A DNA stretch of 23,815 nucleotides, taken from the IMG/VR virus record IMGVR_UViG_2850796239_000008; one strand, written 5' to 3'. Each line of letters opens with the position of its first letter. Position 1 is the stretch's first letter. The notes below the pieces were generated by a model that saw nothing but the letters and a program-made list of their open reading frames with translations, searched no databases and was not told where the DNA came from. This document shows, piece after piece, positions 17,882 through 23,815 of the stretch. The position numbers were made by a program, and so were the translations under genes. The DNA is from a virus. Lineage: Duplodnaviria > Heunggongvirae > Uroviricota > Caudoviricetes.

Positions 17882-18237
17882 ATGCAGTCACGATCACTTC
17901 TTCTTGACACCGGGACATGGGATATCCTGCTTGATGATACCGGAAATCTTGCCATTACTGATAATCCCCATGCGGTAGCTCAGGATGTGGCGTGTGCGTG
18001 CAGTACTTTTCTGGGGAGTGCTGGTACGACTCAACGGCTGGCATACCTTACTGGCCACGCATCCTCGGACACTGGCCCGGCACACAACTGGTGAATGCCA
18101 CTCTGCAACAGGAAGCACTTAAACTGCCGACCGTGAGCGCCGCTGTCTGCCAGGTCACAGCTGATCAAACCCGGACAGTAACAGGTGTGCTGCGTATTAC
18201 AGATACCAATAATGACATTTTTACGGTATTGCTATGA
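17882..18237 (+). pseudogene. Baseplate wedge protein (gpW/gp25-like), split by a frameshift in a G4 run
   Basis: ORFs 17882-18094 and 17992-18237 join as ...ACACSTFLGECWYDSTAGIPYW... if one G is added at 18013-18016; strong RBS CAGGAG before the ATG at 17882. Confidence 0.65.
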
Positions 18238-19476: not shown

Positions 19477-20082
19477 GTGCAGAATGTGGCTGCCACTGTG
19501 CTTGCGCAGTATGCTGCCAGCCCCCGACTCAATGCCCTCATTAACAGCTTTAACGCAGCGCTTTCCCCCGACAGTTTTATCAGTGATTTTTATGGTCTTA
19601 TCTGGAACATCGATACCGCAGAAAAGTATGGTCTTGATGTCTGGGGAAAGATTGTGGGTGTCAGTCGCCGGCTGACGGTAAAGGACGATTTTAATTACCT
19701 GGGCTTCAGCGAGTCTAGGATGGACACCCCGGTAATGGATGATCCCTGTCCGTTTAATCAGGCACCGTTTTACAACGGAAAATCGGATACCCGGACTGTT
19801 GACCTGTCTGATGCTGTATACCGGCGGCTGATACTGATGAAAGCCATGTCGAACATTACTGACTGTTCCGTTCCGGATATTAACCGGATGCTGAGATTTA
19901 TGTTCGGAAAAAAACGCCGGGCTTATGTTCTGAATAATGGTGGATTGAGGATGAGTTACATCTTTGAGTCCGCGCTCTCGTTGGCAGAACTGGCGATTAT
20001 CCAGTCGTCGGGTGCACTGCCATCCCCGCCGGGTGTTTATGTTTCAGTAGTTTTAAAGGAGTCCCGTAATGAAGGCCAGTGA
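19477..20082 (+). CDS. Baseplate/tail protein I-like, 201 aa (GTG start)
   Basis: GTG at 19477 with AGGAGG at 8-nt spacing; position between the J-like gene and the fibre gene. Confidence 0.6.
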
Positions 20083-21301
20083 TAAACCCCGCCAGCTGGC
20101 GGTCCCCTTTGCGAGTACCGGAGATAAAAACCGTATCCCGGACAAGGCGACACAGCAGACCAGAGAGAGCGGTAATGCTGCGTATGATTCAGGTTTTCCT
20201 CCGGTGACCATGACAGCGGTCTCAGCGGGAGGTATACCGCCACACGGCAAGGATTTTAACGGTCTGATGTACGATATTACCGCAGCAATACGGTTCGCCC
20301 AGGCTGGCGGTTTGTACACGTATAATGCCGGTTTTGCGGGGGCCATTGGTGGATATGCAAAAGGAGCCATTCTCGCCGGAGTCGCAACAACAGCGGTCTG
20401 GCTGAATACCACAGACGATAACCTGACCGATCCTGAAGGCTCCGACAGTGCGGGCTGGGTAAATCTTCTTGAGGATCCGAAAAGGATATTCCTGCGGCAG
20501 AAGAACAATCTGTCAGACCTTCAGAATAAAGGGACGGCACGGGATAATCTTCAGGTTTACAGTAAAGAGCAGTCAGATCAACGCTATGTTCATCGGGAAG
20601 GCGATACCTTGTCCGGTGGACTTACTTTTGAAAACGACTCAACCCTTGCCTGGATTCGAAATACTGACTGGGCAAAGATTGGTTTTAAAAATAATGCCGA
20701 CAGCGATACTGATTCATACATGTGGTTTGAAACAGGTGACAACGGCAATGAGTATTTCAAATGGAGACACCGCCTCGCTGGCGGCCGGGTTAAAGACCTG
20801 ATGAATCTCAAATGGGATACACTAAATATTCTGGTTAATGCCGTCATTAATGGTTGTCTTGGAATTGGTACGACGAATGCGTTAGGTGGAAGTTCAATCG
20901 TTTTAGGAGATAACGATACCGGGTTTAAACAAAATGGCGATGGTCTGCTTGATGTTTATGCGAATGGACAGCGTGTATTTCGTTTCCAGAATGGCAGTAT
21001 CCAGAGTAATAAAGCTGTAAACGTTACAGGACGGGTAACACCGTCAGACTACGGAAACTTTGATGCCCGTTACCAGCAGCGAAATGGTGGCGTGCAGGAT
21101 GTGCGGTATGGTTATGAAATGTATTACAACCCTGGCAGCAACACCGTTTCATGGACGTTTCGCTCACCTTCGGGACACGGGCTGTCAGGGATATCGATAT
21201 CGGATACCGGCCGTAACTCAGCGGATAACGTCAACGGTGTGTATTACCGACCGCTGCAAAAACTGATTAATGGCACCTGGTATAACGTAGCGAGTATTTA
21301 A
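20069..21301 (+). CDS. Tail fibre protein (gpH-like), 410 aa
   Basis: AGGAG RBS; conserved fibre N-terminus followed by a Gly/Asn-rich distal region ([37 protein letters not shown]). Confidence 0.8.
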
Positions 21302-21303
21302 CA

Positions 21304-21849
21304 ATGTTGCATTTAAAAAATATTACTGCGGGTAATCCGAAAACCGTGGAACAATATCAGCTGACAAAACAATATGATGTCACCTGGCTTTTTTCGGAAG
21401 ACGGAAAAAACTGGTATGAAGAGCTGAAGAATTTCGCCAGCGACACAATTAAAATAACTTACACCGGAGACGGTCGCGTGGTGTGGGTCGGTAAGGATGT
21501 GACAGGCATTGAACCCCGTAACGCCAGTGTTATTGAAGTTCCTGATATTACCGCCAACCGCCGCATTACCGCGCCGGGTTACTGGTTTTACCGCAATGAT
21601 GAATTTGTCTTTGACTACAGACTCAAAGCGGAAGATGAGCGTGATGCCCTTCTGGCTCAGGTCAGTGCCCGGACAGGGGAATGGGAAGAAGACCTGCTGC
21701 TGGGGTTAATCAGCGACGAAGATAAAGAAAAGCTGAAAGCCTGTCGTATTTACGCGAAATCACTGCAGGCGATGGATTTCAGTGTCATCACAGATAAAGC
21801 CACATATAACGCCATCAACTGGCCGGAGCGTCCCGATGCCGCAGCTTAA
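21304..21849 (+). CDS. Tail fibre assembly protein (Tfa/gpG-like), 181 aa
   Basis: Starts 2 nt after the fibre stop; C-terminal Tfa-type signature ...AKSLQAMDFSVITDKATYNAINWPERP. Confidence 0.8.
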   Translation: MLHLKNITAGNPKTVEQYQLTKQYDVTWLFSEDGKNWYEELKNFASDTIKITYTGDGRVVWVGKDVTGIEPRNASVIEVPDITANRRITAPGYWFYRNDEFVFDYRLKAEDERDALLAQVSARTGEWEEDLLLGLISDEDKEKLKACRIYAKSLQAMDFSVITDKATYNAINWPERPDAAA

Positions 21850-23113
21850 AGGTGTGATTAAAACGCCCACGGGAGAACCGCTGGACGGCGCAACCATTAC
21901 ACTAACCTCCATACACAACCGTGCAGGGATTCTGAAAAGTGTTTTCAGCCATGTCACCACACAGAACGGGGAATATGACTTCCCCGTTCTGCCGGGTGTG
22001 TACAGCGTTCGCCTGACACAAAGCACACGGCGCCTTTCAGAAATCGGTGTCATCCGCGTTTATGAAGATTCAACGGACGGTTCGCTGAATGATTTTCTGG
22101 GCGCAACTGATATTGACCTGCGTCCGGAATCCCTGAAGAAATTCGAAGAGCTGGCGCAACAGGCGCAGCAGAGTGCCGGGAGCGCAGCCGGAAACGCACG
22201 GCAGACGGCGCAGGATGTGACGGCAGCCGCAACGGCCCGTGATGATGCACAACGTTTTGCGGAGAAAGCCCGACAGGATGCAACCGTCACAGCTGAGAAC
22301 AGAAAGGCCACAGCGGAAGACGTGAAAAGCACGGGGAAAAACGCCGTCTTATCCGGTCAGCGTGCACAGGCAGCCGCAGGTTATGCCCGCGCAGCAGAAC
22401 AGGCCAAAAATGACATTGATGCTGCGCTGACCGGCACTCTGAAAACGGCTAACCATCTGTCTGAAATCGCAGCAGCAGGCGAAAAGGCACAACAGAAGTC
22501 CCGGGATAATCTGGGGCTGAAAAGTGCGGCCACGATGGAAGCACAGAGCGACATTTACGACCGGACAAAAGGCCGTCTGGCGATACCCGGCGCATTCGGC
22601 TTTGGGCGTGCTTTTCTGCCTGAAGATGTTATCCGTTTTGACACTAAGAGTGATTTCCTGGCCTGGGTAAGGAATGCGCTGCCAGGTGAATATTCCGTTG
22701 CTGGCCCCTACGACATCATCATACCCGACACACGGTTTGAAGGGGTGCTCAGCATCCGGTGGACTGATGCACGCCCTGAGACAACAGAACCGAGGTACAG
22801 AGCCAAATCCCTTACTTTTTACGGCATTAACGGCCCCATTTATCACACCCGCTACTGCTACTGGCCCATATCCAGACTGACTGGCTGGGTGAAAATAAAT
22901 ATAACCACAGAAGATATTATTTACAGAATCGTGGCGAGCTCTGTCCGCAACAGATGGGGAGACCCTGACATTGGCGGGCTGATTATTGCTGCGTACCAGG
23001 GAGAAGCTGACGGTGATAAAGTCATCAGACTTGTCAGGGGCGGTCATACAGAGGCTCACGACTGGGACCGGTGGGGATTTCAGTGCCCAGTACTCCCACC
23101 GGAACGTATATAG
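21836..23113 (+). CDS. Side-tail-fibre-like protein, 425 aa: Stf-type N-terminal domain with an atypical C-terminal half
   Basis: N-terminus ...GVYSVRLTQS...GVIRVYEDSTDGSLNDFLGATDIDLRPESLKKFEEL matches the prophage side-fibre N-domain pattern; Ala/Gln-rich coiled segment; C-terminal about 180 aa lack fibre repeats. Confidence 0.7.
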   Translation: MPQLKGVIKTPTGEPLDGATITLTSIHNRAGILKSVFSHVTTQNGEYDFPVLPGVYSVRLTQSTRRLSEIGVIRVYEDSTDGSLNDFLGATDIDLRPESLKKFEELAQQAQQSAGSAAGNARQTAQDVTAAATARDDAQRFAEKARQDATVTAENRKATAEDVKSTGKNAVLSGQRAQAAAGYARAAEQAKNDIDAALTGTLKTANHLSEIAAAGEKAQQKSRDNLGLKSAATMEAQSDIYDRTKGRLAIPGAFGFGRAFLPEDVIRFDTKSDFLAWVRNALPGEYSVAGPYDIIIPDTRFEGVLSIRWTDARPETTEPRYRAKSLTFYGINGPIYHTRYCYWPISRLTGWVKINITTEDIIYRIVASSVRNRWGDPDIGGLIIAAYQGEADGDKVIRLVRGGHTEAHDWDRWGFQCPVLPPERI

Positions 23114-23251
23114 CATCCCCACAATTTTTCATTACGGGATGTTCAGAGCATTCATTACCGGGGTCATATTGCGCCCTGTCCGGGGTGCCGGATGCTCATG
23201 TCTCTGGCGCAATGCCCGGGCTTTTTATTCGCACATCGTGAGGAATGCACC

Positions 23252-23815
23252 GTGGAAATTAAAAAAATCATTAATCCCCGTTATACCGAAAGTGGCGCAG
23301 TAGACTGTGACGTTTTTTTTGACGACAGGGACCAGGCAGTCCCCTACACAGCCACCGCTGATGATGTCGCACCGACGGGTCAGCGAATCTGGCAGGAACT
23401 GCAAAGTGGCAAATGGGGTGAGATAGCCCCATTCACTGTGACACCAGAAATGCTGGAAGCGGCCAGAGAGGCCAGACGTCAGGAAATTGAAGCATGGCGC
23501 ACAGAACAGGAGGCGAAGCCGTTCACGTTTGAATGGAACGGTCGTATCTGGAATGCTGGTCCCGACTCACTGGGCCGCCTGTCCCCGGTAGTCATGCTGG
23601 CAAAATCTGTCACAGCACAAACACATATGGCGTGGAGCGATGCCGATAATCAGCAGGTGAAACTGTCGATGCCGGAACTGGAAGAACTGGCGGCAGCAAT
23701 GGTGCAGGCGCAGGTCGATCGCAACGATGAGATTTATCGCCGTCAGCGGGAGCTGAAGGAAGAGCTGAATAGTCTGAAGGATTTGAATTCGGTTAGGAAT
23801 TTTATCGTGGAATAA
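23252..23815 (+). CDS. Hypothetical protein, 187 aa from GTG; possible fibre-associated chaperone or accessory protein
   Basis: GTG at 23252 with GAGGAA RBS at 8 nt (in-frame ATGs at 23192/23198 lack an RBS); position after the fibre gene; stop at the window end. Confidence 0.45.
   Translation: MEIKKIINPRYTESGAVDCDVFFDDRDQAVPYTATADDVAPTGQRIWQELQSGKWGEIAPFTVTPEMLEAAREARRQEIEAWRTEQEAKPFTFEWNGRIWNAGPDSLGRLSPVVMLAKSVTAQTHMAWSDADNQQVKLSMPELEELAAAMVQAQVDRNDEIYRRQRELKEELNSLKDLNSVRNFIVE

Follow-up and report, generated by a model that had tools for sequence, protein, structure and literature searches.

A second tail-fibre gene broken by a frameshift and its intact DUF4376 partner: a probable host-recognition cassette in a defective Rac-site prophage

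At the right end of the virus record IMGVR_UViG_2850796239_000008 (Caudoviricetes), a stretch of 23,815 nucleotides (nt) that we analysed as a whole and refer to as the window, a second tail-fibre gene is followed by a gene for a DUF4376 protein. As now read, the fibre gene runs from an ATG at 21836 to a stop at 23113 on the plus strand (as do all features given below) and encodes 425 amino acids (aa). It is a frameshifted pseudogene of a 468-aa Stf-like, putatively receptor-binding fibre, and the open reading frame of its partner (23252–23815, 187 aa) is intact. Together, the two genes probably represent a host-recognition cassette of a temperate phage that has been inactivated in the window, where it belongs to a defective prophage.

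The anatomy of the second fibre bears out what a sequence-only reading of the window had proposed, namely an Stf-type N-terminal domain, an Ala/Gln-rich segment, and a globular tip that lacks the usual Gly-rich repeats. Residues 4–129 (21845–22222) match the tail-attachment domain PF08400 (E 9.8e-30; 103.7 bits against a cut-off of 26.6), and the N-terminal part also matches PF13620 (CarboxypepD_reg, E 6e-8). The shaft, residues 100–235 (22133–22540), consists of 26% Ala and 10% Gln, is predicted to be helical where it was modelled, and terminates in a conserved junction motif, HLSEIAAAGEKAQQKSRDNLGLKSAAT, starting from nt 22454. Beyond this motif, residues 236–401 (22541–23038) make up the in-frame part of the tip, comprising sub-domain 1 and the first portion of sub-domain 2, and are conserved in homologues that are 33–54% identical. 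Neither Pfam nor NCBIfam offers a match for residues 236 onward, Pfam gives no Phage_fiber_2 (PF03406) or other Gly-rich repeat match in the protein, and all four proteins searched against NCBIfam were left without a family.

The lesion becomes visible upon comparison with near-identical intact alleles from the complete genomes of E. coli VL40 (468 aa) and FDAARGOS_944 (470 aa). DNA alignments place it at 23037–23040, where the window has a run of four Gs and the intact alleles have five, and they also reveal an A-to-G change at 23042, next to the run. Because one G is missing, the protein is out of frame from residue 402. Its last 24 residues ('GGHTEAH...PPERI'; 24 codons plus stop, 23039–23113) thus fall outside the ancestral protein, and this tail is carried by no homologue except the frameshift alleles. 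The sequence GGHTEAHDWDRWGFQCPVLPPERI, which had been quoted earlier as part of the tip, is in fact this out-of-frame product. The rest of the ancestral tip is still legible in the +1 frame at 23041–23241, as judged from its translation and the C-termini of the intact alleles: 66 codons (RSYRGSRLGPV…GLFIRTS, or RSYRGSRLGPV…SLPGSYCALSGVPDAHVSGAMPGLFIRTS) lead to a TGA at 23239–23241, an ancestral stop that shares bases with the ribosome-binding site of the DUF4376 gene. The +1 frame can be recognized as ancestral because distant homologues, 33–54% identical to the tip, keep the pattern GSRL…LPGxYxALSG…GLFxRxA to their last residue, among them phiP27 L56 and fibres of 416 aa whose N-terminus is P2-type.

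Profile matches tell how much has been lost. The window product matches PHROG 2636 ('tail fiber protein') with an E-value of 4e-167 up to profile position 502 of 568, whereas the intact VL40 allele reaches position 567 (E 3e-198). Since the missing part of the match is present in the +1 frame, the locus is a member of this family by descent, in truncated form. On the aligned DNA, the fibre gene is pseudogenised by a −1 frameshift. The sequence-only reading had named a truncated remnant of a longer Stf as the finding that would speak against its distinct tip; the gene is indeed truncated, by a frameshift, and the longer form is only slightly longer (468–470 aa).

Critically speaking, a missing G in a G-run may also be an assembly artefact, in which case a homopolymer under-call in CP026875.1 would conceal an intact 468-aa fibre. 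The exact 425-aa product is known from one contig only, CP026875.1 (GCA_002950355.1, a 5.16-Mb chromosome), and between 15447 and 23785 the window differs from VL40 by three indels in 8.3 kb, each of which is a single-G loss in a G-run (17417, 18013, and 23037), a pattern that could also stem from long-read assembly error. At these three sites the runs count five, four, and four Gs in the window against six, five, and five in VL40. However, the same G4 allele (…LVRGSHTEAH…PPERI; …RGSHTEAHDWDRWGFQCPVLPPERI) recurs in a dozen or more protein entries of S. flexneri, from many accessions, for which reason the mutation is very likely real, and the products of the 17417 and 18013 frameshifts occur on 5 and 8 contigs, respectively. 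Moreover, other Shigella copies of the second fibre gene are disrupted by an unrelated 4-bp GACT deletion, so that decay of this gene must be common. We therefore consider an artefact improbable. Programmed frameshifting or phase variation at the G-run was rejected as well, as the run is only 4–5 Gs long, the intact frame is conserved, and other copies are broken elsewhere.

The two other single-G losses also split genes, namely a membrane-puncturing spike gene (17417; now 17193–17435 and 17405–17869) and a sheath-initiator gene (18013; now 17882–18094 and 17992–18237). The GACT deletion, for its part, can be traced in S. flexneri SFBU1023 and 'E. coli' ECMA0423 (loci L011 and L013–L018), two small Shigella-type genomes with five to six tip-plus-DUF4376 cassettes each. 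Four copies per genome share the deletion, located at the ISRLTDW codons within a (GACT)n repeat, and this lesion suggests that the fibre gene has become a pseudogene repeatedly and independently.

The downstream gene had been described as unknown and as something other than a canonical Tfa. The latter holds, and the former can now be replaced by an identification: the 187-aa protein matches PF14301 (DUF4376) over residues 70–174 (E 4.9e-17; 62.8 bits against a cut-off of 25) as well as phrog_1141 (E 5.6e-88), and is a putative tail-fibre chaperone. Its gene has a GTG start at 23252, preceded by a GAGG ribosome-binding site at 23240–23243, and its TAA stop closes the window, with the final base at 23815. 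RefSeq starts homologous genes at an upstream ATG (207 aa; 23192–23815 in the window), giving a 50-nt overlap with the intact fibre gene. The 187-aa form is likely the real product, given that the GTG position is where the homologues begin in phiP27 and in P2-like and Mu-like prophages. Its AlphaFold2 model (predicted local distance difference test, pLDDT, 88) is mostly helical and resembles prefoldin-type chaperones, and a PDB sequence search with the protein gave nothing meaningful. The option of a 'divergent Tfa' was rejected at the sequence level, since PF02413 (Caudo_TAP) finds no match in the protein and an hhalign comparison with the window's Tfa yields a probability of 0.15%, in other words no relation. 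Both kinds of protein do meet in PHROG 11571 (223 positions), whose N-terminal part is matched by the Tfa at 21304–21849 and whose C-terminal part is matched by the DUF4376 protein at 23252–23815; hence, natural Tfa/DUF4376 hybrids seem to exist.

Whether the downstream protein co-varies with the tip was a check suggested by the sequence-only reading, and it clearly does. In each of the 18 loci that were inspected, the DUF4376 gene stands directly 3' of the tip gene, and in 11 of these loci (Shigella flexneri, Shigella-like 'E. coli', Salmonella, and Yersinia similis) it starts 10–17 nt past the tip gene. Where tips are 94–99% identical, the first 60 residues of the chaperones are 100% identical, while the last ~35 residues track the flanking backbone and not the tip. 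Across cassette types, tips share 35–49% identity and chaperones 67–82%. These figures also bear on the proposal that the DUF4376 protein is a distal adhesin that remains on the fibre tip and sets the receptor (cf. gp38 of T2/T6), rather than a folding helper. Such a role would agree with the label of PHROG 1141 ('tail fiber protein') and with the GenBank annotation of the phiP27 and Rac-SA53 homologues as tail fibre proteins; furthermore, TfaMu stays on its fibre, and there is a proposal that DUF4376 chaperones serve as transient 'caps'. Yet an adhesin in contact with the receptor would be expected to show the reverse of the observed identities, and the mostly helical, prefoldin-like model does not speak for it either. 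We regard this role as quite unlikely.

The cassette occurs in different surroundings. In the window it is preceded by a first tail-fibre gene (20069–21301, 410 aa; phrog_454 with E 3e-85, phrog_6859, and a weak gp37_trimer match), whose homologue in E. coli VL40 is labelled 'phage tail fiber protein', and by the canonical Tfa of this first fibre (21304–21849, 181 aa; PF02413 Caudo_TAP with E 8.8e-27, phrog_136 with E 3.9e-60), the end of which the second fibre gene overlaps by 14 nt. The same order of fibre 1, Caudo_TAP Tfa, fibre 2, and DUF4376 is found in phiP27 (L54–L57), Rac-SA53 (tail1–4), two P2-like prophages, and one Mu-like prophage. E. coli FDAARGOS_944 has this fibre and its DUF4376 partner in a lambdoid prophage, where J and lom precede them. 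The junction HLSEIAAxGExAQxxSRDNLGLKSAAT is conserved far above both of its flanks, also in phiP27 L56 and the P2-like fibres, and with this degree of conservation it fits what one expects of a recombination joint.

The right-hand side of the cassette varies as well. In E. coli VL40 and VL7S7, the type III secretion system effector gene ipaH3 lies directly 3' of it (11161–12876 in locus L001 and 34080–35795 in locus L009), whereas sitDCBA takes this place in the source genome and in FDAARGOS_944 (12181–15630 in locus L003). In CP026875.1, the cassette is followed by four ATP-binding cassette (ABC) transporter genes matching sitDCBA of the FDAARGOS_944 locus and then by matches to uspF and ompN. 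Near-identical cassettes with different right-hand junctions suggest recombination between prophages.

Looking beyond these loci, a profile search of a large protein collection places the tip in a family of about 250 clusters at 90% identity, of which nearly all the named ones come from E. coli, Shigella, or Salmonella. A search of 1.84 billion representative proteins found only 124 clusters at 50% identity. The N-termini in this family are varied and carry PF08400, PF12571 (the P2-type tail-collar fibre), PF03406, or no recognised domain. Profile searches also show that some long fibres (570–1300 aa; P0337–P0342 and P0400–P0402) either contain tip sub-domain 1 alone, in the middle of the protein, or hold two to three tandem copies of it, a duplication reminiscent of that of the knob of Alteromonas phage A5 (PMC10579305). 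The tip is thus globular and free of repeats, as the sequence-only reading had it, but the word 'atypical' goes too far for a member of a catalogued family that includes phiP27 L56.

To obtain a structural picture, the C-terminal 262 residues of an intact allele were modelled with AlphaFold2 from an alignment of 22 sequences. The model (mean pLDDT 79, predicted template modelling score 0.47; pLDDT 86–94 over most of the core) predicts a helical stalk with a two-lobed alpha/beta head. As the frameshift maps to model residue 196, five confidently modelled strands of the distal lobe would be removed. Foldseek found no match to the model in the PDB at E < 0.01, and a PDB profile search had no match to the tip either; the profile picked up nothing but an unrelated shaft motif that other members of the family carry (9d93 gp4). 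The tip is best read as a receptor-binding head of a type without a solved close relative.

An enzymatic module, for instance a depolymerase or an esterase, had been considered as another possible identity of the C-terminal domain. It finds little to lean on: Pfam, NCBIfam, and PHROGs give no enzyme family, the PDB profile search is silent on the tip, and the domain counts only ~230 aa with no beta-helix predicted. Two tailspike entries did appear, but their scores do not exceed those of the neighbouring ordinary fibre and receptor-binding proteins. Moreover, invariance is confined to Gly, Trp, Tyr, Phe, and Pro, which are typically structural, and no conserved set of Ser, His, Asp, or Glu accompanies them. 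A plain binding head is the far better description, and a catalytic role is very unlikely.

The prophage around the cassette has decayed, too. The window opens in a ttcA fragment (1–480), followed by intR (532–1767), Gam, and RecE, and then by Rha/Ash, a cI-like repressor, YdaT, a DnaB helicase split by an IS3-family element (11552–12708), DUF1627, and DUF977. An IS1 element (14697–15200) abuts a truncated baseplate gene, with baseplate genes directly beyond it. The window's prophage retains no lysis, head, sheath, tube, or tape-measure genes. By its gene content, the element is a defective Rac-site prophage whose losses appear as deletion associated with insertion sequences (IS). Without head, sheath, and tube genes the fibre gene cannot serve a virion, which is consistent with its decay. 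That the 425-aa product still works, be it as a shortened fibre or as a domesticated host protein, is hardly credible: its long reading frame and the intact DUF4376 neighbour would allow for it, but the frameshift costs it the invariant positions (G-S, LPG, ALSG, and LF-R) and five confidently modelled strands, the C-terminal end is where folding of such fibres is believed to start (PMC7289586), and the virion genes are gone.

How would an intact cassette operate? The PF08400 N-domain would anchor the second fibre, presumably a trimer, to the tail, and the two-lobed head would bind a receptor on the cell surface. The DUF4376 protein may act as an intermolecular chaperone that binds the head and aids folding and trimerisation from the C-terminal end. 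This mechanism is borrowed by analogy from experiments on DUF4376 proteins of other phages. In Alteromonas phage V22, the DUF4376 protein gp27, a homologue of A5 gp9, is essential for active fibres (PMC7289586, PMC10579305), and the H-fibre of Campylobacter CJIE1 acts as a receptor-binding protein only if the downstream DUF4376 gene is co-expressed (PMC7882524). The pair of tip and chaperone would be portable, joining lambda-type, P2-type, or other N-termini via the conserved junction motif, and would sit behind fibre 1 and its canonical Tfa in myovirus-type prophages and behind lom in lambdoid ones. In the window, the −1 G deletion would strip the last 66 conserved residues, including the five predicted beta-strands of the distal lobe, leaving the cassette dead.

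Some points weigh against this account of a probable, inactivated host-recognition cassette. The single-G pattern of all three indels has been mentioned above. In addition, the tip model is that of a monomer, while the protein is probably trimeric, and the experiments on DUF4376 chaperones come from Alteromonas and Campylobacter phages. A more far-reaching version of the account would state that the receptor-binding head formed by the tip is structurally of a new class and, together with its DUF4376 partner, makes up a self-contained plug-in host-range cassette; that this cassette is mobile among enterobacterial lambdoid siphovirus and P2-, Mu-, and phiP27-like myovirus prophages by recombination at 'LSEIAAxGExAQxxSRDNLGLKSAAT'; and that the chaperone is a prefoldin-like helical hairpin. 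All of this taken together is a tentative proposition, to which we grant somewhat less than an even chance.

As for its significance, the fibre gene of the window carries little weight, being a pseudogene in a defective prophage from a family that is already catalogued as tail fibre (PHROG 2636); a second fibre with a DUF4376 partner is an ordinary kind of cassette. A modest interest remains in the fold of the tip, which lacks a solved relative, and in the portability of the module across tail morphotypes. In nature, tip and chaperone, which amount to ~420 aa in total, are attached through a conserved junction to no fewer than three types of fibre N-terminus. Such a compact pair is a candidate module for retargeting lambda-, P2-, and Mu-based particles or pyocins and may therefore appeal to phage engineers. 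By analogy, the chaperone class of DUF4376 proteins would be widened from Alteromonas and Campylobacter phages to prophages of E. coli, Shigella, Salmonella, and Yersinia. The repeated, apparently independent frameshifts of the fibre gene in Shigella add a further case of prophage decay in this lineage.

Among known systems, the closest are phiP27 L56/L57 (NP_543108/NP_543109) and Rac-SA53 tail3/tail4, which have the same four-gene order at the right end of the prophage. L56 aligns with the intact allele over its full length, including the tip and the C-terminal motif (36% identity, E 5e-72), and L57 is 72–76% identical to the window's DUF4376 protein. The window copy differs in being frameshifted, and the tips are only ~35% identical, so that they probably bind different receptors. 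The tail3 protein of Rac-SA53 counts 1061 aa and has Phage_fiber_2 repeats, unlike the window fibre. Our search of the literature returned nothing specific on the fibres of phiP27 or Rac-SA53 and no functional characterisation of them.

With lambda Stf, the window fibre has the PF08400 N-domain in common, and a near-identical allele even takes the stf position (after J and lom) in the lambdoid prophage of FDAARGOS_944. In contrast to Stf, the window fibre has no Phage_fiber_2 repeats, belongs to another tip family, and is partnered by DUF4376 instead of a Caudo_TAP Tfa; it also falls well below the length of long Stf-type fibres (1061 aa in tail3, for example). Nor does it lie downstream of J/lom, as it follows Baseplate_J, DUF2612, fibre 1, and Tfa in what is a contractile-tail prophage. 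The pairs S/U (TfaMu) of Mu and H/G of P2 have a Tfa of the kind that serves fibre 1 in the window (PF02413), with no detectable sequence relation to the DUF4376 protein. The likeness to gp26/gp27 of Alteromonas phage V22 and gp8/gp9 of A5 lies in the arrangement: there, too, the DUF4376 partner is encoded immediately 3' of the fibre gene, and, like the cassette described here, these pairs are shared between unrelated tail morphotypes.

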